A stretch of DNA of 64,000 nt. Origin: a virus (lineage: Duplodnaviria; Heunggongvirae; Uroviricota; Caudoviricetes). Below the pieces are notes generated by a model. The model was given only the letters and a program-made list of their open reading frames with translations, made no database searches and was not told the DNA's origin. The position numbers were made by a program, and so were the translations under genes. Location: IMG/VR virus record IMGVR_UViG_2639762987_000002, one strand, 5' to 3'. Shown here piece after piece: positions 12,287 through 59,143 of this stretch. Position 1 is the stretch's first letter. Every line of letters starts with the position of its first letter.

Positions 12287-12502
12287 TTGATGAGTGGTCT
12301 CAGTTTACCTTTTATCCTAAAGATGGCATCTTCACTCATATACACGCCTGTTCACTCAAGCTCATGTTGAATCATTTAGTAATTTGATGTAGATTTATTA
12401 GGCATCCACGTAAGTGGGCACATACAGGCTACGCATCCTCGTAGCCTTCAACCCCGAGAGGGGTGCCGCAATGACACTTGTGTTAACGGCTAAGGTGGAC
12501 AC

Positions 12503-12886
12503 ATGCTGAACGAGAAACGTTCTATACAAACTATTCGCGATTGCACGAGTATTATCGAGACTCATGTGCTGAATCAGCACAAGCTTGAAGTACGTAAGCT
12601 CAATAATGACGCTATTGAACCGGAAGACTCACGCTTCATCGTTACCTTCAAAGACGATGTTGAGCGCGCTGGTGCAAGCGTGAAGCCATTAGCTGAAGCA
12701 ATTTACCTGAATGGTCGTGTTCGTTTTGTAGTCAAGCCAGCTAAACAGTACCCTGAGCTGTCTCGTTTTATCGAGGCTTTTTCGGAGGTTATTGAACATT
12801 CTATTCGCCGCTTCTTACGCAATCATGGTAGCATTGTCAGCACGGTTAAGGCTGATGATTCTGCTACAAAATGGCTCCTACACTAG
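12503..12886 (+). CDS. Hypothetical protein
   Basis: 127 aa; overlaps next ORF by 16 nt, suggesting a two-gene operon. Confidence 0.45.
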   Translation: MLNEKRSIQTIRDCTSIIETHVLNQHKLEVRKLNNDAIEPEDSRFIVTFKDDVERAGASVKPLAEAIYLNGRVRFVVKPAKQYPELSRFIEAFSEVIEHSIRRFLRNHGSIVSTVKADDSATKWLLH

Positions 12887-13623
12887 ATAGCGCATATTCA
12901 AAAGATCTAAGCGAGTTTCCTCATAAAGGGGAGACTCGTGTTGTTCGTTTTGGCTTTCTTATCAATGAAGCCTCCCTCTATAAAATCTCAGAAATTGAAA
13001 TCATTGAACCAGAAGATGACATTTGCCTGTATGTCTCTATGGAACTTGTAGGTGCGCGCGACCAAGGCGACCTGAGCGAATTCATCTTAGATCGAGCGGA
13101 TGAAGATGCCCCTGAAGAAGAGATTATCAAAGAGGTGCTCCAGTCCGGGCTTCTGGACGAAAACAAAAATACGATCGCTGGTAGGATAGCTCTGCGTGAA
13201 TATAGTTTTGTTGAAGACGGTAATGAGATCGAATGTTACCAGGTAGCCGGTGTCGAAACTGTCAGAGAGCGTCGTCAGCGAGGATTGTGTCACCGTACCT
13301 ATCTCTTTCTTCTTCATTGGTATGAGCATTTAGTCTGCGACGATACACAAACCATTCCTGGTGCTAAGATCTGGGCAGGGCCTCTCATGCGAACCGGCGA
13401 TGTGCGTATATACAATGCCAAAACAGAAACGTTCGAGGATGTGTTAGGTGAGTACGGGATGGGGAAAGAAACCGGATTTTTGCCGTGGAACAGAGGATTG
13501 TTGCTTGATGCAGAGTTAAGCTCTTGGCTCCCAAACAAAGTGCAAGTTAACGTTCAGAAATTTATCGTACTTATCATCTCCCGCAAAACAAGAACTCCAG
13601 TAGGTTTATACCTAAAAGATTAA
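12871..13623 (+). CDS. Hypothetical protein
   Basis: 250 aa, acidic N-terminal half; followed by a terminator. Confidence 0.5.
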   Translation: MAPTLDSAYSKDLSEFPHKGETRVVRFGFLINEASLYKISEIEIIEPEDDICLYVSMELVGARDQGDLSEFILDRADEDAPEEEIIKEVLQSGLLDENKNTIAGRIALREYSFVEDGNEIECYQVAGVETVRERRQRGLCHRTYLFLLHWYEHLVCDDTQTIPGAKIWAGPLMRTGDVRIYNAKTETFEDVLGEYGMGKETGFLPWNRGLLLDAELSSWLPNKVQVNVQKFIVLIISRKTRTPVGLYLKD

Positions 13624-13628
13624 AAATC

Positions 13629-13651
13629 AGGCGACTTTGGTCGCCTTTTTT
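13629..13651 (+). terminator. Rho-independent terminator
   Basis: AGGCGAC-TTTG-GTCGCCT hairpin followed by TTTTT. Confidence 0.8.
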
Positions 13652-13751
13652 GTTAACAGCCATTGATTCTCGCCTAAAAATTCTAAGGCAGCACCTACCA
13701 TTTAACCTTTACACCACAGCCGTAGGCATTTAGGCTATATCACATATAAGA

Positions 13752-13799: not shown

Positions 13800-14468
13800 A
13801 TGACCAAGATCTTTGTGGTTGGCGGCACAAAGGGCGGGCCTGGCAAATCCACCGTTGCCCAGCAAATTGCCGTTTGCCTGAAAGTCAAAAAGAAGAAGAA
13901 GGTTTATATCACTGATATAGATATTCAGCGCACGACAACAAGCTGGTGTGAAGACCGTCGACAGAACGAAGACCTTGAGCTGATTCCTTTTGCATACGTT
14001 CAGGATGACATCATTAAGCACCTAAAATCGCTTCAGGGTAGAGCTGAGTTTGTAGTGGTAGATGCTGGTGGCTTCGACTCCGAAATTCAGCGACAAGCGA
14101 TGCTGATGGCTGACGTTATCATTATCCCGCTGCGTCCTAAGCGTCGTGATTTGAAATCTTTACGTGACATCGATCCTATTATCGACAATGTTCGCAATGT
14201 AAACGATAAAGTGAAGGTCCGCGCGGTCATGAACCAGTGCCCGGCTTTGCCATCACAAGTGTCTCGCATTCTGGCGGCTAAAGAGATTGTTGAGACGTTT
14301 GGCATCGAGTCTGCGCCAGTCAATCTATATAACCGCAACGTCTATGATGATGCGGAAGAGTCTGGTCGTTCTATCTTTGAAATGACCGGTAGCGAGCGCG
14401 ACAAAAAGGCGGAAGCCGAGTTTGAAGAATTTGTAGATTATCTGTTGAGTCTGGAGGAAGAAGAATAA
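13800..14468 (+). CDS. parA: ParA-family partition ATPase
   Basis: Deviant Walker A GGTKGGPGKST at N-terminus; 222 aa; followed by a small RHH-like gene. Confidence 0.75.
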   Translation: MTKIFVVGGTKGGPGKSTVAQQIAVCLKVKKKKKVYITDIDIQRTTTSWCEDRRQNEDLELIPFAYVQDDIIKHLKSLQGRAEFVVVDAGGFDSEIQRQAMLMADVIIIPLRPKRRDLKSLRDIDPIIDNVRNVNDKVKVRAVMNQCPALPSQVSRILAAKEIVETFGIESAPVNLYNRNVYDDAEESGRSIFEMTGSERDKKAEAEFEEFVDYLLSLEEEE

Positions 14469-14827
14469 TGTCCATGAAAATGGGTGACCTAGCAAAGCGC
14501 AAAGAGCCTGATGCACCGGCTAAGAACACAACTCCTTTGCGCCAACCAGTCAGACCACAGGGACGCCCGACTCGTGGCAAAGAGAAAATTAAAAGCCGCA
14601 CAATGTCACTGGAGGACGAATACTTCGAACTGCTGGAGATGATGAAGTTCATCCCTCGCTTCGAGAAGTTCACTCGTTCTGACGTGATTCGAGCAGCCAT
14701 TTTCCATCTGGCAGAGAAGTCACCGCAGGAAATCGAGGACATCGTGAAATTGAATGAGGCGATCACCGCTGCCGATGTCACGATGCGTACCGATGAAATT
14801 AAACGAGAGTTGATGAAGAAAGGTTAA
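14468..14827 (+). CDS. Putative centromere-binding protein (ParG/RHH-like)
   Basis: 119 aa; basic disordered N-terminus, C-terminal strand-helix-helix-like region; start overlaps parA stop. Confidence 0.4.
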   Translation: MSMKMGDLAKRKEPDAPAKNTTPLRQPVRPQGRPTRGKEKIKSRTMSLEDEYFELLEMMKFIPRFEKFTRSDVIRAAIFHLAEKSPQEIEDIVKLNEAITAADVTMRTDEIKRELMKKG

Positions 14828-14828
14828 A

Positions 14829-14865
14829 AGTTATGCATTGGCGCAATGTACGCGCCAATGCATAA
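14829..14865. other. Perfect 15-bp inverted repeat between convergent genes
   Basis: GTTATGCATTGGCGC-aatgtac-GCGCCAATGCATAAC; no T-run; terminator or protein-binding site. Confidence 0.5.
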
Positions 14866-14879
14866 CTACAGTGTCAGCT

Positions 14880-15647
14880 TTATGCCGCGCTAACACTATG
14901 TTCAGTCCTAACCACCCCAACCTTCACAAAAGGGCTACCGTAGCTTGGTGGCTTCTTGATTAATTTGCCTACATACAGTTTTCTAATATGCTCATCGGCT
15001 ATTCTGCCAACAAATTCATAACGTTTTGTGTCGGGGCCAAGAGCTATATCCCTTGTAAAGTACTGCTGAGAACCGGCTTTGACCCAGCATTCAATCTGAT
15101 AAACTTCCATTATCAGCCCACCATATGTAGCGTAGGCATATTTGAGATTCTCGTCTCTTGGAACCTTTGCCCATACGCCACGCGTAGCTTCATATAATGC
15201 CAGAGCGGACATTCCTGACTTGTAGGTGCTGTTTAGCAGGAAGGCAAGACCGGCGTGCTCAGGAGCAATTTCAGTTTCCTCTTGCAGCACTAAGTGATGG
15301 TAGGCGTCCAGTGATATTCTGCCCATCATGGAACCACTTCCTCGTACCTTATTCGTAAGCTCTCCGACCCCCATAAGGTCGATGCATGTCGCCTCAACAA
15401 GTTTGGCTGTGGTTTCATCCATACCATGACGAAGTATATCTATGCCTAATTTTTTATTAGCCAAAAGTTCTTTGATCCGCATGGATTTGGGAGAGTCATC
15501 GGGATACTTGATGTGATCGAGACAACGAGTCGATTTGCCTTTTCCTATGTAAAACGGTCTTTTCATCTTGTCTTCTGTATCATAGAGACAGTAAACATAG
15601 TATTTAGCCTTATCCAATGATCTCGCGTATACCGATAAATCGTCCAT
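14880..15647 (-). CDS. GIY-YIG family nuclease
   Basis: 255 aa on minus strand; N-terminal YYVYCLYD...PFYIGKGKSTR matches the GIY-YIG motif; C-terminal domain unassigned. Confidence 0.6.
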   Translation of the reverse strand: MDDLSVYARSLDKAKYYVYCLYDTEDKMKRPFYIGKGKSTRCLDHIKYPDDSPKSMRIKELLANKKLGIDILRHGMDETTAKLVEATCIDLMGVGELTNKVRGSGSMMGRISLDAYHHLVLQEETEIAPEHAGLAFLLNSTYKSGMSALALYEATRGVWAKVPRDENLKYAYATYGGLIMEVYQIECWVKAGSQQYFTRDIALGPDTKRYEFVGRIADEHIRKLYVGKLIKKPPSYGSPFVKVGVVRTEHSVSAA

Positions 15648-15765
15648 TATTGCATCTCTTTGCTACTGACTAATGCGTTCTATTTTACACATAAGTTTTT
15701 AATCAATTTAACAGGCTCAAAGTGTAGAGCTTCTGGGCGTCTAAGACGACAAGTTATGCCTGTTT

Positions 15766-15822
15766 CTGTATATATAAATAATAAGTAACTTATTAAATAT
15801 ATACGGAAGCAGGTCTTTTAAA
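15766..15822. promoter_or_regulatory. AT-rich element with TATAAATA core flanked by imperfect inverted repeats (copy A)
   Basis: CTGTATATATAAATAA...TATACGGAAG(C)AGG; second copy at 61957-62015; lies in divergent intergenic region. Confidence 0.4.
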
Positions 15823-15929
15823 AGACACCACCAGAACAACTCCCTTCCGTTTCCACTTCCAAAAACTGCCACCAGTCGCTATCATCCGCTCATTGTGATA
15901 AGTAAGTAACTACCTACCAGGTGAGCCAC

Positions 15930-16670
15930 ATGAGCCAAATCTTTTTCGATACCATCGACAACGACCAGTACGACTTCATGACAGAGTGGAATACCGCTGT
16001 TATGGACAAGTGGGTCGCTGAAAACATTGGTTTGTCGCGCTGTAAAGACGAGGCTGAACTCTTCGAGACGAAGTGGTTTGATTACCGCGACATGCATCCT
16101 CTCATGGCCACCTGTCTTTTTACGGAGGCATACAAACGTCAGTACTCAAATATCATGCTGACGCACGGTCGCGAACACTTTGAAACAGCTCCGTTCACCA
16201 CCGGGTTAAAACGCCTGCCTTATCAGGAGTTGTCGACTGCCAATAAAACGTCGCTATGGAAAGCACGCCAGTTTGCGGATCGCTATTGCTGCTCATACGA
16301 CTACTTTATCTCCACCGTTCTTTCCGCAGCTGCACGACGGCTGTGGGACAAGCTGCCGCGCCCACAGCATTTGTGGCAGCCAGAACTGATTGAGATATTT
16401 GAAGAGAAATTAGCCAGACGCGCAACAACCCGTCTGGATGACTCTCTGGTTAGCTTTAAGCATATGGGAGACATGCAGTTCAACCCGATTCAGGAAAGCT
16501 ATTTTGAGTGGATTCTGGAGCGTTTGCGCACCATCCCTCGCAGCAAGCGCATACGCGCAATTTTCTCCGCTATCTGGCTAATGGAAATCGTTCCAGAGCG
16601 CCTTATTTCCGCCCACTTTCCAGAAGAACTGGAAGAAGCACGGCGGTTTATTGATCCCCTATCTAATTAA
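15930..16670 (+). CDS. Hypothetical protein
   Basis: RBS AGGTGAG before ATG 15930 (ORF track begins GTG 15921); no motif recognised. Confidence 0.5.
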   Translation: MSQIFFDTIDNDQYDFMTEWNTAVMDKWVAENIGLSRCKDEAELFETKWFDYRDMHPLMATCLFTEAYKRQYSNIMLTHGREHFETAPFTTGLKRLPYQELSTANKTSLWKARQFADRYCCSYDYFISTVLSAAARRLWDKLPRPQHLWQPELIEIFEEKLARRATTRLDDSLVSFKHMGDMQFNPIQESYFEWILERLRTIPRSKRIRAIFSAIWLMEIVPERLISAHFPEELEEARRFIDPLSN

Positions 16671-16713: not shown

Positions 16714-18054
16714 ATGACCGAACTTTGCCATACAGGACGCGGGCTGTCCGAAGAGTTTGATGAAGATTTCCAGAACAGACTGACGGCATATTTTTGTCGT
16801 GATCACGAGTTTCTTACTCGTGCGGGAGATCTGGTTGTGCCTAGCCAGTTTGCCAATGCGGCCAATGCCATATTGGTTAATATGGTTTCGGGCTATTACC
16901 GTATGTACAAGAGCGCGCCCTCTTCATCTGCAATTCTGGATATGCTTAAGCGTGCGAAACGCGATAAGACTATCCGTGAGGAACTATTCGCCGATGTTGT
17001 TGCTGCGTTTAAGCGCATTCTTGCAGAAAAATTGTCCGATACCTCGTACATGGTTGACCAGGTATCAACCTTCGCAAAAAGTGTAGCGTTTGATGATGCT
17101 CTGATTAAGGCTGCTGAACTGAAAGAGAAAGGCGACTTTCAGGGGGCGATGGCAATCATGGCCAAGGTTCAGCAGATTGGATCGAACGAAGCGACCGGAA
17201 TCTATGACTACTACACCTCCGCAAGTGAGCGATTGAAAGCGCGTGAATATGAGGCTTCAGAGGAGTATGTACCAAACAGTATTACAACTGGACTCCCTCT
17301 TCTCGATAGGTTGCTGTACCAAAAAGGCTGGGCAAAGCGCGAAATGGTGCTCTTCATGGGGTTCGCTAAATCCGGTAAATCGACCGCAATGGGTGAGTTT
17401 TCCATAAACGCAACGCTTGCTGGCTACAATGTTCTGTATCTCTCGCTGGAGGTTCACACCACCATTTTATCCGACCGTTTTGATGCAAGATTGTCGGAGA
17501 CAGAAATGTCCAAGCTGGTGGAACGGCGCGATGAGGTTCATCGTAAGTTGGCAGAGTTGGGAGCCACGAAGGGGATTGGTAGTTTGTGGGTGGTTGAGCG
17601 TCCGTCAGGAAGTATGTCACCGGCAGATCTGGACCGTATGCTTAACAGCATGAAAGCCAACGGCATGGTACCTGACATGGTTGTTGTCGACTACGCAGAT
17701 TTGATGCGTGCCAGTTATGACCTTCGTGATGATCGCGCCAACATTCGTAGTATCTACACCGATTTACGTGCTCTTTATGACAAGCATAACGTTGCTGGGA
17801 TCACGGCATCGCAGACAAACCGTGAAGGTGGCGCGTCAGAAGTTGCCACAATGATGCACGCTGCCGACAACATCGAAAAAGTACGTATTGCTGACCTGGT
17901 AATAACGATCAACAAAACCGAAGAAGAAGAAGCGAAAGGAGAGGCTCGTCTCTACTTTGCCGGTTCACGTAACCAGCAGGGAGGGATCAGCATTCGCGTT
18001 AAACAAAACCTCGAACAAATGCGCTTCATTGAGCGAATCTTAGACGTTACCTAA
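16714..18054 (+). CDS. Replicative DNA helicase (DnaB-like, RecA-fold)
   Basis: 446 aa; Walker A GFAKSGKST, Walker B-like VVVDYADLM; adjacent to primase. Confidence 0.6.
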   Translation: MTELCHTGRGLSEEFDEDFQNRLTAYFCRDHEFLTRAGDLVVPSQFANAANAILVNMVSGYYRMYKSAPSSSAILDMLKRAKRDKTIREELFADVVAAFKRILAEKLSDTSYMVDQVSTFAKSVAFDDALIKAAELKEKGDFQGAMAIMAKVQQIGSNEATGIYDYYTSASERLKAREYEASEEYVPNSITTGLPLLDRLLYQKGWAKREMVLFMGFAKSGKSTAMGEFSINATLAGYNVLYLSLEVHTTILSDRFDARLSETEMSKLVERRDEVHRKLAELGATKGIGSLWVVERPSGSMSPADLDRMLNSMKANGMVPDMVVVDYADLMRASYDLRDDRANIRSIYTDLRALYDKHNVAGITASQTNREGGASEVATMMHAADNIEKVRIADLVITINKTEEEEAKGEARLYFAGSRNQQGGISIRVKQNLEQMRFIERILDVT

Positions 18055-18135
18055 AAAATAAGCGTGGAGAACACCTCCACGCTTGATTCATTGGTGAAAC
18101 AACTTTTCTTTTGCCAAACCACAAAAGAAAAACAC

Positions 18136-19317
18136 ATGAGCCTTTATGTTATATCAACATTTAGGTTGGTCACAATATTGCCTGTTAAAAGTGGAATTAT
18201 CGTGAGCGAGCTGAAAGAGCTAATTACCGAATTAGATTTTGAACAATGGTTGGATACTGAAGGTATCGTTTATCGACGTGGAGGCGTGAGTACTCGCGGT
18301 CGTGAAGTGAATATCAAGGAGTGTCCGGTATGCGGCAGCTCCAACTGGAAGGTATATTTCAATCTGACCAGTGGCGTCGGTAAATGCTTCGCTGGTGATC
18401 ATCCCGAAGAGATTCAGTTCAATAAGCTGGTCTTCCTCAAGCACTACAGCGGCAAATCACGACGACAGTTCGAGGAATATGTGCAGAACGCCCTTCTTTC
18501 CCAGGGGTGGGCACCAAAGAAAGAAGAGCTAGTGCTTGCAAGCACAGTCGAGTTAGAGGAGCCAGTTGCACTCCCTCGTCATTACGAGCTTCCTATAGAT
18601 GGCCGTCTTCCAGACTATCTGGTTGAACGAAACATATCGCCTGAAATGGCAAAGTATTTTGACCTACGATACTGCGTCGAAGGCAAGCACGCCTATGTAG
18701 ATCCGTATACAGATCAGGTTAAAGGACAGATATTCGATATGCGAATACTGATACCGGTTTACGATCTGGATGGGGTAATGAAGACATTTCAGGGACGAGA
18801 CATTACCGGTACAGCAGAACGCCGCTACCTCTTTCCTATGCAACTTCCAGCTTCAGGTAAGTTTCTCTACAACGGCCATAATGCAGTCGGCAAACAGACT
18901 GTAGTTGTCTGTGAGGGGGCGTTCGATGTTATGGGGGTTAAACGAGCTATTTTTGACGAAGAAACATTACGTGATTACGTGGAACCAATAGGAACGTTCG
19001 GGATGCATCTATCTGGTAACACCACTCAGGATGCAGAAGATCAGTTAGGCGCGTTCCTGACGCTCAAGGCGCGTGGATTACGTAATGTGATCATGATGTG
19101 GGATAGTGAAAAGCAAGCTATACGCAACACGATGGCCGCAGCCAGGCGACTGACCAGTATCGGTCTTAATGTCAAAGTTGCGTGTTTGGGTGAGGAAGGA
19201 CTCGACCCGGGCGGTGCAACGCCAGAACAAATTATCAAAGCCTATTATCGGGCAAAACCGTATACCAAACAGTTGGAGTTGCAAAGCAAGGTTTTGGGCA
19301 TTAAGGCTCTATCATAA
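18136..19317 (+). CDS. DNA primase (DnaG-like zinc finger + TOPRIM)
   Basis: ATG 18136 preceded by AAAAGAAAAACACATG; CPVCGSS...GKCFAGDH zinc motif; VVVCEGAFDVMG and MMWDSEKQ TOPRIM-like motifs. Confidence 0.7.
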   Translation: MSLYVISTFRLVTILPVKSGIIVSELKELITELDFEQWLDTEGIVYRRGGVSTRGREVNIKECPVCGSSNWKVYFNLTSGVGKCFAGDHPEEIQFNKLVFLKHYSGKSRRQFEEYVQNALLSQGWAPKKEELVLASTVELEEPVALPRHYELPIDGRLPDYLVERNISPEMAKYFDLRYCVEGKHAYVDPYTDQVKGQIFDMRILIPVYDLDGVMKTFQGRDITGTAERRYLFPMQLPASGKFLYNGHNAVGKQTVVVCEGAFDVMGVKRAIFDEETLRDYVEPIGTFGMHLSGNTTQDAEDQLGAFLTLKARGLRNVIMMWDSEKQAIRNTMAAARRLTSIGLNVKVACLGEEGLDPGGATPEQIIKAYYRAKPYTKQLELQSKVLGIKALS

Positions 19318-23615: not shown

Positions 23616-23690
23616 GATGGTGTAGCTCAGCGGTAGAGCAGTTGGCTGTTAACCAACTGGTCGGTGGTTCGAATCCACCCACCATCGCCA
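23616..23690 (+). tRNA. tRNA-Asn (anticodon GTT)
   Basis: Manual fold: acceptor GATGGTG/CACCATC, anticodon loop CTGTTAA, T-loop TTCGAAT, 3' CCA. Confidence 0.75.
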
Positions 23691-23695
23691 ATTTA

Positions 23696-23782
23696 GGGGA
23701 GTTAGTCCGTAGAGGTAGCGGTGTAGACTGTAAATCTACTGTCATGGCGACTCGGGTGGTTCGACTCCATCACTCCCCACCA
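23696..23782 (+). tRNA. tRNA-Tyr (anticodon GTA), long variable arm
   Basis: 87 nt; acceptor GGGGAGT/ACTCCCC, anticodon loop CTGTAAA, T-loop TTCGACT, 3' CCA. Confidence 0.65.
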
Positions 23783-23786
23783 AATT

Positions 23787-23862
23787 GCCGGTTTAGCTCA
23801 GTTGGTAGAGCGCCTGCCTTGTAAGCAGGATGTCAGCGGTTCGAGTCCGTTAACCGGCACCA
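23787..23862 (+). tRNA. tRNA-Thr (anticodon TGT)
   Basis: 76 nt; acceptor GCCGGTT/AACCGGC, D-loop AGTTGGTAGA, anticodon loop CTTGTAA, T-loop TTCGAGT, 3' CCA. Confidence 0.8.
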
Positions 23863-24079
23863 ACACAACAGGAAAGAGCATTGAAAACCGCCGAGACTGC
23901 CCTGTTTTAAGCGTAAGTCCGTGCAAACGTCATACAGTGCTCTTTTCGTTGTGGTTGATGCGCAGACTGATGCGCGGAAAGAAATGCCCCAGCGACACAC
24001 GAGGCGAGTTCACACACTGCAATGCAGTCAGTAGCCGGGGTCGCTAAGCCGGAGATCAGTACCGGTAACCACAACAATT

Positions 24080-24166
24080 GGAGAGTAGGGAGCATGGTGC
24101 TCAAGCGGTCTTGAAAACCGTCCCATTGTGCAAACGATGATGGTTCGATTCCATTACTCTCCGCCA
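24080..24166 (+). tRNA. tRNA-Ser (anticodon TGA), long variable arm
   Basis: 87 nt; acceptor GGAGAGT/ACTCTCC, anticodon loop CTTGAAA, T-loop TTCGATT, 3' CCA. Confidence 0.65.
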
Positions 24167-54246: not shown

Positions 54247-55389
54247 ATGTCATATTCAACGTTCCGTTTGGGTGCTAATGATGCAACCAAAGAGCCTATG
54301 TTCCTCGGACAATCTGTCAACGTGGCACGTTACGATCAGCAAAAATACCGTGATTTTGAAAAGTTGATTGAACGTCAATTGTCTTTCTTCTGGCGGCCGG
54401 AAGAAGTTGATATTTCGAGCGATCGTATCGACTTCAACACGAAGCTGCGGGACCACGAACGTCACATTTTTCTGAGCAATCTCCGTTATCAAACGTTACT
54501 CGATTCAGTTCAGGGACGTAGTCCAAATGCAACGCTGCTGCCGCTTATCTCTATTCCTGAACTGGAAACGTGGGTTGAAACGTGGTCTTTCTCTGAGACT
54601 ATCCATAGCCGCAGCTACACCCACATTATTCGTGGCATGGTGGACGATCCGAGCATTGTTTTTGACGGTATTGTTACGGATGAAGAAATCATCAACCGAG
54701 CGATCAGTATCTCTGCTGAATATGACAGGCTTTATGGGATGACCTGCGAGCGCCAGTCGTTAGGTGAGAAGGAATTTGAGCGTCTGTACGTAAATGAATA
54801 TGGCTGGGAGCCATACCCTTTGCATCGTCAGCTTTTCCGCACGTTGGTGTCCATTAATGCTCTTGAGGCGATCCGTTTCTACGTAAGTTTTGCATGTACG
54901 TTTGCCTTTGGTGAACGGAAGTTGCTTGAGGGTAACACCAAAATTATGCGCTTTATTGCCCGTGATGAAGCTCTGCATTGCGAAGGAACTGAACGCATGA
55001 TCCGCTTCATGCGTACCGGTCGCGAAGGTTTATTGTGGAAAGAGATTGCTGCTGATGAAGAAAACGTCATTTACGACACCATGAAATCAGTCGCCGAACA
55101 AGAAATGAACTGGGCAGACTATCTCTTCAAAGACGGTTCGATGATTGGTTTAAACGCGGATATTCTCAAAACCTATGTAAAATACCGCACCAATCTGGCT
55201 ATGAATCGTCTTGGCCTGAAGTCTTTATTTCCAGAAGTTACCACTGATCCGCTGGTCTGGATGAACAAGTGGTTGTTAACCGACACACTGCAAATTGCAC
55301 CACAAGAGGCAGAGCAAAGCACATATCTGGTAGGTCAGATCGATTCTACCGTGGATAAGGCTTCTCTAAGCCAGTTTGCAGACCTGTAA
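54247..55389 (+). CDS. nrdB: Ribonucleotide reductase class Ia small subunit
   Basis: 380 aa; di-iron/tyrosyl-radical protein features; directly downstream of nrdA; start context AAAAAGGAAAAACACATG. Confidence 0.9.
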
Positions 55390-55466
55390 ACCGATACAAA
55401 GCATTATGTGGCCTAGCAACGCTGGGCCACAATGGATCACAAGAATTAAGAAGGAACAAAACTAGC

Positions 55467-56336
55467 ATGAACTTTACCAAACTGACTGACCACCTGAAAC
55501 TTGCCACCGATCGACTCATTGGATTTAAGCCAGAACCATATGAATTGCATGAAGGCCATGGTGTAGCCACTGAAAGTATTTACAAGATGGTCGATCAGTT
55601 TCATGAACTCTTCCAGCATCCGAGACGCGTTATGCCGACACCAGAGCTGCTTCGTCTCCGTGCAAGCCTGATTCATGAAGAAGCTGTAGTGGAAGGTATT
55701 CCAGCTGCAATGAATGGGGATATTGAGCAACTGCTGGATGCAATGGCCGACTTTTTATACGTTGGTGTTGGTACGATGGTCGCCATCAAAGGTGGTATTT
55801 CTACCGGCATGACCTATTACACGCAGGAACAGAGCATTGATCGCTTTATGCAGACAATTTTTGTGCCTGGTAACACTGTTTTCGATGATATGGCAATGCC
55901 ATTTCAGGAAGCTCGTGAGGCGTCATGTATGCTCGAAGAGCTGGCAGATAAACTTGAGAAGAAGACTGTTAAGGATTCTGAGCTGATTCAGGAACTGCGC
56001 CGTGTAATGAACAAAATCTATGTGGCGTGCATGATGACTTATCGACTGGCTGATTTTCTCGGTATCAATGTCGTCGAGCTGGTTGGCGAAATTCATCGGT
56101 CCAACATGACAAAATTATGGCCTGCAGATGCCGAAGAGCGTCGCCATGCTGTGGCCAACTGCAAATACGACTCTTCTGACCTGGGATTTCGCCATGCTGA
56201 TGGCACCGATAAGATGATCGGTTTTCGAATTTCCGATGGAAAGATTCTGAAGTCTCCAACCTATAGTGATGTCGATTTATCCTCCTTTGTTGAGCAAGCT
56301 AAAGCCTCAGCAATGTACGGAATGATCAAAAAATAA
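55467..56336 (+). CDS. Possible MazG-like nucleoside triphosphate pyrophosphohydrolase
   Basis: 289 aa; helical EExxE/D-rich segment LIHEEAVVEGIPAAMNGDIEQLLDAMADFLYV; assignment tentative. Confidence 0.4.
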   Translation: MNFTKLTDHLKLATDRLIGFKPEPYELHEGHGVATESIYKMVDQFHELFQHPRRVMPTPELLRLRASLIHEEAVVEGIPAAMNGDIEQLLDAMADFLYVGVGTMVAIKGGISTGMTYYTQEQSIDRFMQTIFVPGNTVFDDMAMPFQEAREASCMLEELADKLEKKTVKDSELIQELRRVMNKIYVACMMTYRLADFLGINVVELVGEIHRSNMTKLWPADAEERRHAVANCKYDSSDLGFRHADGTDKMIGFRISDGKILKSPTYSDVDLSSFVEQAKASAMYGMIKK

Positions 56337-56405
56337 TTGTAGGTAGTTATCTATCTGTGTATATTGCGCTGGCGCGTTAAATTTCTGAAACAACTATTCG
56401 TTTTT

Positions 56406-56431
56406 GGTGGCCTATGGCCACCATTTTTTTA
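56406..56431 (+). terminator. Rho-independent terminator
   Basis: TGGTGGCC-tat-GGCCACCA followed by TTTTTTT. Confidence 0.8.
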
Positions 56432-56507
56432 TCTGTCTGGTCTTGTTCTCTCAATAAATGTAAACTCACGCAATGAATAAGTGGTTACTTATCTTTGTGA
56501 GGTTTTT

Positions 56508-57611
56508 GTGTCACTCCTTTTGAATCGTGAGCATACGAACGGTCAGGTAACAAACGCATCGTATGCAAAAGTTATTGAGACGGTGCTTAAAAGCGGCGTG
56601 CAGGCTGATGATCGCACAGGCACTGGTACTTTAAGCACCTGCTACGTTCCCTCTTACTACATGCTTACTGGTGGGACTGTGCCGCTTATTTCTGGAAAGG
56701 CGGTAAATCTTAAGCCACTGCTTGTCGAACTTGAGTGGTATCTGAAAGGCACGGGCAACATCCAATTTCTCAAGGATAACGGCGTTAAGATTTGGGATGC
56801 ATGGGCCGATGAGAATGGCGATTTGGGGCCGGTTTACGGTAAGCAGTGGCGTCGATGGGAAGATACCCGCATCGTGAGCCATAGTGAATATCTGAGCAAG
56901 ATCGCTACTTTCCGTGAACGCGGGTACAAAGTCGAGGGATACCTGGGTATCAGTGAAGATCGCGTAGTGCTGTCCCGTGAAATCGATCAGCTACAGCGTA
57001 TTGTCGATACACTGCGCACGAACCCTACCGATCGTCGCATCATGCTTAACGCATGGAACGTAGGCGAGCTTGAGGATATGAAACTGCCACCTTGCCACTT
57101 TGTCTTCTCTTTGTGGAGTCGTGAACTGGATTTTGAAACCCGTTTAACGATGGCAACTGACATTGGTCTACAACACAGTCGCCTCGGTTATGAGTCTATC
57201 TACACCAAGATGCTATACGATCTGGAGATGGACGGCAGTGTTACTGAAACTGAACTGGATGAACTTGGAATCCCCAAACGCATCCTCAACTCCTGCCTCG
57301 TACAGCGTAGCGTAGACACTTTTGTTGGTATGCCATTCAATATTGCTGGCTATGGCATTCTCACTCATTTTCTCGCGAAGATTACGGGTCACATGGCCGG
57401 TGCATTTGTGCATTTTGGCTTTGACGTGCATTTGTACAACAACCACATGGAAGGTGTGTGTGAGCTAATGCAACGACAGGCTCCAGAGCATTCAGATCCG
57501 GTCGTTATATTCCCTAATGAATGGTCTGAGCTGGATGATTTCAAATGGGACGAGATTCTTATTCTTGGCTATGCCCCTCTACCGTGGATCAAGGTTCCAG
57601 TGGCGGTGTGA
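56508..57611 (+). CDS. thyA: Thymidylate synthase (ThyA)
   Basis: DRTGTGTLS near N-terminus and catalytic MLNAWNVGELEDMKLPPCHFVFSLW; start uncertain (GTG 56508 after GAGG; ORF track begins GTG 56481). Confidence 0.85.
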   Translation: MSLLLNREHTNGQVTNASYAKVIETVLKSGVQADDRTGTGTLSTCYVPSYYMLTGGTVPLISGKAVNLKPLLVELEWYLKGTGNIQFLKDNGVKIWDAWADENGDLGPVYGKQWRRWEDTRIVSHSEYLSKIATFRERGYKVEGYLGISEDRVVLSREIDQLQRIVDTLRTNPTDRRIMLNAWNVGELEDMKLPPCHFVFSLWSRELDFETRLTMATDIGLQHSRLGYESIYTKMLYDLEMDGSVTETELDELGIPKRILNSCLVQRSVDTFVGMPFNIAGYGILTHFLAKITGHMAGAFVHFGFDVHLYNNHMEGVCELMQRQAPEHSDPVVIFPNEWSELDDFKWDEILILGYAPLPWIKVPVAV

Positions 57612-57612
57612 T

Positions 57613-58026
57613 ATGGCAAGAGGTATGTATGTCTTATGCGAAATTGAAGGTGTGCTGGCAAATACCAGCCATCGTAAATCTGTATCTGACTCGGATGCAG
57701 GCCAATTCATTGCCGGTGATGAACTCATTTTCCCCACCAGCCGTATGTTGCGTGGTTTTGCTCGCTCAGGGGCTGAAGTGGTGCTTATCAGTAGCCGCTC
57801 TGAAACTCTTGAAGCGCCCACTAAACGATGGCTGAAAGATTTTGGTGTTGATTACGACTGGCTTCACCTCGTACCGAATAGCACTAGTTATGAGAAGCAT
57901 ATTAAGCGCACATTAGCGGAGCATAAAGGCGATCTGCTTATCGCTGCGCTGGTGCACGATCCTCGACTCCGTGCCGCTTTAGCTGACTCACATCATAGAC
58001 CGGTCATCTATGAGGTGAGCAAATGA
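57613..58026 (+). CDS. Hypothetical protein
   Basis: ATG 57613 two nt after thyA stop; ORF track begins 57517 inside thyA; no motif recognised. Confidence 0.4.
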   Translation: MARGMYVLCEIEGVLANTSHRKSVSDSDAGQFIAGDELIFPTSRMLRGFARSGAEVVLISSRSETLEAPTKRWLKDFGVDYDWLHLVPNSTSYEKHIKRTLAEHKGDLLIAALVHDPRLRAALADSHHRPVIYEVSK

Positions 58027-58499
58027 AGATGATAGCTGCTGTTGGCCGTAACTATGAGATCGGCATAGCGAACGAACTGCCCTGGCGTTGTTCTACCGAT
58101 CTGAAGCTATTTAAGAGACTCACCAAAAACGCCACTGTCGTTATGGGGCGTAAAACGATGGAAAGTCTCAAACGCCCTCTTCCAGAGCGTCATAACCTCG
58201 TTTTGACGCGCTCTCATGGCTTTGTACCAAATGGATTCTACCCTGCTGGTGTGGATGATGTGTTGCGATTACCAGAGCCTGTGTGGGTGATTGGCGGGGA
58301 ACAAATTTACTCGCTATTCATGCCGCATGTTGAAGAGATTTGGCTCTCCCACATCGGCGTTGATGTGCCAAACGCCGATGCATTCTTCCCGGCAAGCATG
58401 ATGCGTAATTTAGGCTTTGTGCCTGTTGAAACAGCTTATACCCAACGAGCCAGCGAGGAAGAGCCTGGCTTTTCGCAGATCGTATACAGAAGGTCGTAA
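58023..58499 (+). CDS. folA: Dihydrofolate reductase
   Basis: 158 aa; MIAAVGRNYEIGIANELPWR and VVMGRKTMESL match DHFR N-terminal motifs; ATGA overlap with upstream gene. Confidence 0.85.
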   Translation: MKMIAAVGRNYEIGIANELPWRCSTDLKLFKRLTKNATVVMGRKTMESLKRPLPERHNLVLTRSHGFVPNGFYPAGVDDVLRLPEPVWVIGGEQIYSLFMPHVEEIWLSHIGVDVPNADAFFPASMMRNLGFVPVETAYTQRASEEEPGFSQIVYRRS

Positions 58500-59143
58500 T
58501 GGATTACCGGATTGGGATCACTGGTGCTCAGGGCAGTGGGAAAACAACCCTGGCTAAATATATCGACAAACATTACGGAATCCCTTACGTGGATGCTGGT
58601 GTCGGAAGTTTGATGAGCCGCCTCGGTGTTCGAGTAGGTGATTCTATGCCTCTATATGAGCGGCTTCAGATTCAAATGGAAATAGCAAAGCATATAGAGC
58701 TACTTACGCGTGGTGCTGAAGGCTTTGTTATCGATCGCACACCTGCTGATGTTATGGCCTACACGTTGGATTTGGTCGGCCATACAAATGAAGATCGGTG
58801 TATTGAGTTAGCCCTCGATATCGAAAAGTTTTGCCACAAAACTGCTATTTCAAACTTTAACGCCATTGCTGGCCTACGCCCGGGGGTCGCTCTCTCAGAG
58901 CGAGATTACTTGCGGTCACAACGAGCATCATTAGACCGTCTGTATGTCGCTCGTATTGATGCGTTGATGTGCGGGGAACTGACAAAAATTCACCTGCATC
59001 CGCAAAGGGGAGATCTGCAAACCTTCGTCGTTTCCAACCGGTATCGCACAGTTGAAGCAAGAGCCAGATCAGTGATGAGAATGCTAGATAACGCGGTAGA
59101 AAAGATAGAAAACCGGTTCTGTGGCCGAGTGACCGTTCATTAG
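58499..59143 (+). CDS. P-loop nucleotide kinase (possible dNMP kinase)
   Basis: 214 aa; Walker A GITGAQGSGKTT at N-terminus; sits in nucleotide-metabolism cluster. Confidence 0.45.
   Translation: MDYRIGITGAQGSGKTTLAKYIDKHYGIPYVDAGVGSLMSRLGVRVGDSMPLYERLQIQMEIAKHIELLTRGAEGFVIDRTPADVMAYTLDLVGHTNEDRCIELALDIEKFCHKTAISNFNAIAGLRPGVALSERDYLRSQRASLDRLYVARIDALMCGELTKIHLHPQRGDLQTFVVSNRYRTVEARARSVMRMLDNAVEKIENRFCGRVTVH

Follow-up and report, generated by a model that had tools for sequence, protein, structure and literature searches.

The closest described system is CMoRE, the name that Liu et al. (2026) gave to the protein previously called PD-T4-3, which is a single-protein type IV restriction endonuclease (PMC12923530). 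CMoRE binds and cuts DNA carrying 5hmC or glucosyl-5hmC and spares DNA with C or 5mC. The cut follows the pattern CN11/N9G and leaves 2-nt 3' overhangs. In E. coli, the protection against T2, T4, and T6 was about five logs, and it was obtained without abortive infection. The structures (PDB 9U7U, 9U75, 9U7Z, and 9U8D) revealed a tetramer, with an interface formed by V92/L96 and the beta1-beta2 loop, and the GIYxY-YIG motif consists of Y17, Y19, and Y31. A 15-residue acidic loop autoinhibits the enzyme, and a 4A mutant of this loop was toxic and cut ordinary DNA. This loop is found in 'most', not all, members of the family (all from PMC12923530). A further member, PD-T4-3Capno from Capnocytophaga, shares 48% identity with PD-T4-3. 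It likewise depends on modification, and it cuts Mu DNA as well (PMC12366544). Among the systems of a native clinical isolate of E. coli, PD-T4-3 was one of only two that were active. For the experimentally tested PD-T4-3 of NILS69, the source paper gives no gene location. A 2025 preprint that used DefenseFinder has at least 44 table entries for PD-T4-3 in E. coli and Shigella phage-plasmids of the SSU5 group.

Here, a 64,000-nucleotide stretch of viral DNA, called the window below, was analysed around a gene for a GIY-YIG nuclease. The gene occupied positions 14880-15647 on the minus strand, started with ATG, and encoded 255 amino acids. In the E. coli plasmid pAVS0968-B, which was 99.9% identical to the region, the RefSeq gene with identical coordinates was WP_000342417.1. 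The segment YYVYCLYD...PFYIGKGK at residues 16-38 formed the GIY-YIG motif. Pfam LEM-3_GIY-YIG (PF22945) scored 30.1 bits over residues 32-104 (cutoff 27). The term LEM-3-like, which RefSeq currently uses as the product name, is a domain-level label only. An NCBIfam search with the protein gave no match. The reading frame matched PHROG 5356 (E 1e-99) and had 288 homologues at E<=1e-5, so it was no chance ORF.

Every neighbour of the gene was on the plus strand. On one side were parA, coding for the ParA ATPase (13800-14468), and a small parB-like gene (14468-14827). On the other side were a conserved gene for a 249-aa protein (15921-16670), a DnaB-like helicase gene (16714-18054), and a primase gene (18064-19317). 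The preliminary description had placed a GIY-YIG gene of this length against the prevailing direction and between partition and replication modules, and both the reading frame with its motif and the plus-strand neighbours agreed with it.

The region was 98-99% identical to the Escherichia phages PhiR41_1 and CMS-2020a, and the flanks shared about 84% identity with Salmonella phage SSU5. The closest plasmid encoded capsid, terminase, tape-measure, and tail genes together with par genes, DnaB, primase, DnaE, NrdAB, and ThyA. Since phage structural genes and plasmid genes were combined in this relative, the window was assigned to an SSU5-like phage-plasmid of E. coli, a member of the SSU5 supergroup. 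A literature search on phage PhiR41_1 returned nothing relevant. Four tRNA genes (Asn-GTT, Tyr-GTA, Thr-TGT, and Ser-TGA) were clustered at 23616-24166. A second variable slot was located at about 12400-13692, between the lysis genes and parA, and many relatives lost homology to the window left of 13693. The two ORFs of the window in this slot (12503-12886 and 12871-13623) had no Pfam or PADLOC match. The same slot held a KacT-type toxin-antitoxin pair in Cyrano and a minus-strand gene of ~185 aa in pHCM2 and a Klebsiella plasmid (183 and 185 aa).

The family of the nuclease was assigned by several comparisons. The PADLOC model for PD-T4-3 matched residues 11-231 (E 1.3e-23, 81.9 bits), covering positions 11-238 of the 256-position profile (89%). 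When phmmer was run against PDB sequences, only 9U7U and 9U75, both CMoRE, were found (E 2e-15), and the match spanned residues 12-230, which included both domains. An AlphaFold model built with 52 homologues reached a pLDDT of 86; confidence was low in the linker (residues 98-106). The top four Foldseek hits of this model were CMoRE chains, aligned over the full length with E of about 1e-12. These results showed from sequence and predicted structure that the nuclease is a divergent relative of CMoRE (PD-T4-3). The family is large, with 3113 representatives at 50% clustering and E<=1e-3.

The protein was composed of two domains. The N-terminal nuclease domain (15357-15647, minus strand) carried the GIYxY-YIG motif (Y17, Y19, and Y33), R41, E85, and N99, and a shortened alpha2-alpha3 loop with the sequence YPDDS. 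The C-terminal domain, residues 107-247 (14907-15329, minus strand), was homologous to the modification-sensing domain of CMoRE. This identity followed from the phmmer and Foldseek matches, which ran across both domains. The C-terminal domain had been described as unassigned, which is out of date, since the homologous domain of CMoRE was assigned by the 2026 crystal structure (PMC12923530). At 255 aa, the nuclease had no further Pfam domains and was the single gene of its cassette, and this was the single-gene, two-domain (type I) architecture of CMoRE / PD-T4-3.

We compared the nuclease with CMoRE residue by residue. The identity to CMoRE of E. coli O157:H7 was about 31% overall and was higher in the nuclease domain (40%) than in the sensing domain (29%). 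Both are single genes of about 250 aa with an N-terminal GIYxY-YIG domain and a catalytic Arg and Glu, and the flexible linker of CMoRE corresponded to the low-pLDDT residues 98-106 of our model. In the pairwise alignment, Y17, Y19, and Y33 corresponded to Y17, Y19, and Y31 of CMoRE. Y17, Y19, Y33, R41, H45, E85, and N99 were invariant in 52 homologues that were 50-79% identical to the query. A wider alignment of 112 sequences consisted of 110 near-full-length family representatives, this nuclease, and the O157 CMoRE. All six of Y17, Y19, Y33, R41, E85, and N99 were kept in 108 of them. R80 and V92 at the dimer interface of CMoRE corresponded to the conserved R73 and V84. However, L96 of CMoRE was replaced by Cys88, which was invariant in the subfamily. 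The nuclease also differed from CMoRE in the beta1-beta2 loop, which was longer by 2 residues, and at the C-terminus, where it had a tail of about 25 additional aa. The characterised CMoRE proteins are those of E. coli ECOR68, APEC O1, and O157:H7; unlike them, the present nuclease was borne by a phage-plasmid.

The largest difference was found in the acidic 'safety-catch' loop between alpha2 and alpha3. The segment from H45 to L61 had 17 aa (HIKYPDDSPKSMRIKEL), in contrast to 22 for CMoRE in the pairwise alignment and 25 in the 112-sequence alignment. The loop was about 5 residues shorter and contained DD (D51-D52) where CMoRE has DDDD or DDDE. The 15-residue loop with four consecutive acidic residues, which is a trait of CMoRE, was absent from this nuclease. 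When the loop was removed from the CMoRE of O157:H7, that enzyme became toxic and cut ordinary DNA. The short form was present in 69 of the 112 aligned sequences and was commonest among the nearest family representatives. An acidic run of at least three residues in the loop was found in four of the 112. Because the loop was shorter and less acidic than in CMoRE, self-discrimination may work differently in this nuclease.

Based on the above results, we consider it quite probable that the gene encodes a modification-dependent restriction endonuclease of the CMoRE type, which the phage-plasmid carries as a defence cassette and which would protect both host and element against T-even-type phages. 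An exclusion or defence nuclease had been one of two functions suggested before, and it gained support because the protein was a full-length homologue of the validated PD-T4-3/CMoRE and the gene was accessory and patchy. The mechanism is proposed by homology to the solved CMoRE enzyme. The C-terminal domain would bind hypermodified DNA, most likely containing 5-hydroxymethyl- or glucosyl-hydroxymethyl-cytosine. Using Mg2+ or Mn2+, the GIY-YIG domain at the N-terminus would then make a double-strand cut whose distance to the modified bases is fixed. Incoming DNA of T-even-type phages would be destroyed directly and the cell would survive. The host chromosome and the phage-plasmid, both with ordinary cytosine, would be spared, and the phage-plasmid would gain by protecting its resident cell. 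By the same homology, the dependence on modification, the spectrum of targets, and the oligomeric state of the nuclease may resemble those of CMoRE. The gene would be expressed in the plasmid (lysogenic) state. We also infer that self-DNA is spared despite the shortened and weakly acidic autoinhibitory loop.

The target base of the enzyme was considered separately. The same family and architecture might serve a different modified base and a phage range other than the T-even phages, with Mu-type carbamoylmethyl-adenine, arabinosyl-hmC, or 5hmU derivatives as candidate bases. This would agree with the sensing domain being only 29% identical to that of CMoRE, with the loop architecture, which differed throughout the subfamily, and with the degradation of Mu DNA by PD-T4-3Capno (PMC12366544). 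PD-T4-3Capno belongs to the same family as this nuclease, and its modification dependence indicated that function is kept in divergent members. However, it comes from another host phylum and was compared by description. Since the 5hmC contact of CMoRE is made by a main-chain atom, specificity is unreadable from the sequence. All family members tested so far restrict T-even phages, and a different base was judged unlikely on this ground.

A restriction enzyme of the CMoRE type raises the question of whether the element modifies its own DNA. The element encoded a 367-aa ThyA-like protein that passed the TIGR03284 thymidylate synthase cutoff. It kept the catalytic Cys and the dUMP-specifying Asn (PFNIAGY), as judged against a sequence taken to be that of E. 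coli ThyA. The gene adjoined a dihydrofolate reductase (DHFR) gene. In the annotation of the closest plasmid, there was no dCMP hydroxymethylase or glucosyltransferase. Taken together, the ThyA residues, the DHFR neighbour, and the lack of hydroxymethylase and glucosyltransferase annotations suggested that the cytosines of the element are probably unmodified, so that its DNA would be no substrate and would be spared by the nuclease. A modification of the element's DNA derived from dUMP is possible.

The ThyA gene was part of a nucleotide-metabolism cluster at 54247-59143. This cluster contained NrdB, a MazG-like pyrophosphohydrolase (55467-56336), ThyA with two large insertions (56508-57611), a HAD/PNKP-like phosphatase, DHFR, and an NMP-kinase-like P-loop protein. 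The long ThyA-like gene and its MazG-like, kinase-like, and HAD-like neighbours led us to consider that the element makes hydroxymethyl-cytosine. This was rejected because the Asn and the Cys were kept, TIGR03284 was passed, and DHFR was adjacent.

The borders of the insertion were determined from homology breaks and junction alignments. The nuclease gene was contained in an accessory cassette at 14826-15758 (minus strand), which comprised a terminator, the gene, and its own promoter region. This cassette of 0.93 kb was self-contained and occupied a variable slot between the stop codon of the parB-like gene and a conserved palindrome of the backbone. The homology to Cyrano, whose flanks were 97-98% identical, ended at 14825 and restarted at 15749. 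The homology to SSU5 also ended at 14825 and restarted at 15759. Position 14825 lay within the stop codon of the parB-like gene.

A perfect palindrome (14829-14867), which had been noted beside the gene before, was located downstream of it, with 16-nt arms (14829-14844 and 14852-14867) that were 100% complementary and a 7-nt loop. No other such palindrome occurred in the window, and the number expected by chance was 0. As RNA, it had a dG of -28.5 kcal/mol and a z of -6.6. The hairpin began 12 nt past the stop codon of the nuclease, and UUUUAACCUUUCUUC followed the stem on the minus strand, that is, on the nuclease transcript. These features indicated that the palindrome is likely the intrinsic terminator of this transcript. 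It was also the hairpin directly after the convergent parAB-like operon. The scan with a promoter/terminator tool did not call the hairpin terminator, because the U-tract contained only 4 U in 8. In PhiR41_1 (L001, 3136-3175), the loop of the palindrome was inverted, GTACATT versus AATGTAC, and the left arm was degenerate. These differences suggested recombination or inversion at the hairpin. The palindrome was also inspected as an integron attC site, which was rejected because its core sites did not fit GTTRRRY/RYYYAAC.

On the other side of the gene, the GC content was 0.33 at 15600-15799, compared with about 0.46-0.49 nearby. The AT-rich element reported in the preliminary description was therefore recovered upstream of the nuclease gene. 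The cassette-borne AT-rich 5' region extended over ~110 bp (15648-15758, minus strand). A loose hexamer scan located a candidate sigma-70 promoter there, with TTAAAT as -35 (15711-15706), an 18-nt spacer, and TAAAAT as -10 (15687-15682). This match to the consensus was weak, and the sequence might represent the nuclease promoter. A stricter tool scan of the region called no promoter. The 5' region also contained a weak Shine-Dalgarno sequence, AAGAG.

A 9-bp direct repeat, AAGTTATGC, was found at both ends of the cassette on the plus strand. The left copy (14828-14836) was also part of a palindrome arm, and the right copy (15751-15759) was at the right junction. Only these two plus-strand copies were present in the 64 kb, where 0.24 were expected. 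The repeat bracketed the cassette exactly. The right border of the slot was a 55-bp AT-rich imperfect palindrome (CCTGTTTCTG...CGGAAGCAGG) at 15759-15813. It was kept in every relative examined, including SSU5, Cyrano, and a plasmid with an empty slot, which meant that it belonged to the backbone and was outside the cassette. Beyond it, upstream of the 249-aa gene, were two direct repeats of 20 nt, spaced 41 nt apart (15815-15875). Candidate roles for the 55-bp palindrome and these repeats are those of a partition site, operator, or origin element.

The distribution of the gene was examined in PLSDB, where about 730 plasmids shared the flanks. The nuclease gene was present in 136 of them, 134 at an identity of at least 99%, and almost all were from Escherichia. 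This patchy presence among relatives, which the preliminary description had proposed to check, identified the gene as accessory. Among the SSU5-like PLSDB plasmids of Escherichia/Shigella, about half carried it (135 of 249). In complete E. coli genomes, the cassette was found in 107 of 5426 (2%), always on a plasmid and never on the chromosome. Homologues 73-76% identical to the nuclease were found in Salmonella and Providencia as solitary chromosomal genes between housekeeping genes.

The slot was rarely empty, and a 30-bp spacer alone was found in six of 729 plasmids. A DUF2971 protein was present as several alleles in Cyrano/pLF82, SSU5, pHCM2, pECOH89, and Klebsiella plasmids, and it matched the PADLOC candidate defence family PDC-S31. 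The slot also held a KAP-family NTPase, which matched the candidate family PDC-S49. Two other minus-strand genes were found in the same slot, one for a 357-aa protein in S. sonnei pMHMC-002 (L017, 4763-5836) and one for a 351-aa protein in pHCM2 (L016, 5576-6631). Neither protein had a Pfam or PADLOC match, and both are defence gene candidates by position. Each type of cargo had its own, different hairpin directly after the stop codon of the parB-like gene, and the empty slot had none. Cassettes appear to be exchanged in this slot between backbones that are otherwise 97-98% identical.

These results also bore on the other function suggested in the preliminary description, a free-standing GIY-YIG homing endonuclease of the Seg or I-TevI type that cuts a specific site and spreads by repair-mediated copying. 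The catalytic domain is a trait of homing endonucleases, the gene was present or absent between conserved genes of the relatives, its copies were nearly identical (at least 99%), and homologues in jumbo phages are annotated as homing nucleases. However, the protein had no sequence-reading DNA-binding module (no NUMOD, IENR1, HTH, or zinc-finger module was found by Pfam), and its C-terminal half was the CMoRE sensing domain. I-TevI, the Seg proteins, and T4 EndoII have an entirely different C-terminal domain. Their genomic behaviour also differs, since the gene studied here was in a cargo slot with alternative genes. Simple presence or absence with an intact target in gene-less relatives was not observed; these relatives mostly held unrelated cargo in the slot, and empty sites were as rare as given above. 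The gene had its own promoter region and terminator and formed an autonomous transcription unit, and its close homologues were the single chromosomal genes between housekeeping genes. Because of the missing reading module, the rare empty sites filled by other cargo, the autonomous unit, and the solitary chromosomal homologues, homing was judged very improbable, and this part of the earlier proposal was not supported.

An equally faint prospect was a nuclease of the lytic cycle that attacks the DNA of the host or of competitors whether or not it is modified, like T4 EndoII or a superinfection-exclusion nuclease. In favour of this, an acidic loop as short as the one found here could be less autoinhibitory. 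However, the element with its probably ordinary bases would itself be a target, EndoII has no second domain, and the gene would be transcribed alone from a plasmid-maintenance region and had homologues that were stable in bacterial chromosomes.

Full-length homologues of the nuclease were also found in Serratia phage Moabite (gp009; L019, 2968-3732) and in Serratia/Pectobacterium jumbo phages. They were about 28% identical over residues 12-236 and are currently annotated as GIY-YIG or homing endonucleases. These proteins may instead act in the manner of CMoRE, as weapons against co-infecting phages whose DNA is modified.

Returning to the defence cassette, three broader proposals were made. 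The short-loop subfamily may avoid cutting self DNA although it lacks the acidic safety catch, and the hypermodified base that it reads may be a different one. In SSU5-supergroup phage-plasmids, the parB-rep junction may serve as a hotspot dedicated to single-gene defence; no paper specifically on an SSU5 defence hotspot was found in a literature search. The predicted model gave a hint that the CMoRE sensing domain could be a remote PUA-like (ASCH/EVE/YTH) reader and no new fold. The type IV enzymes with PUA readers (VcaM4I, McrB N-domains, and EVE/ASCH/YTH-nuclease fusions) have HNH or McrC as nuclease, whereas the present one has GIY-YIG, and the fold relation to them was remote and based on the predicted model. 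We regard the combination of a distinct short-loop branch of CMoRE, a hotspot at the parB-rep junction, and a remote PUA-like reader as tentative and rather doubtful as a whole.

The family, its structure (2026), and the occurrence of PD-T4-3 in SSU5-group phage-plasmids (2025 preprint) were already known. New here are the exact gene and cassette borders, the variant with the short loop, the hint at a PUA-like fold, and the reading of the parB-rep junction as a slot for single-gene cargo. Current concepts are unchanged by the nuclease. The finding explains a gene that has been recorded as "hypothetical" or "LEM-3-like". Hosts of these widespread phage-plasmids are probably made resistant to T4-like phages, which is relevant to phage therapy and to phage typing of E. 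coli and Shigella. In addition, the variable slot could be mined for further single-gene defence candidates, and the variant with the short loop provides a natural test of the proposed acidic "safety-catch" mechanism.
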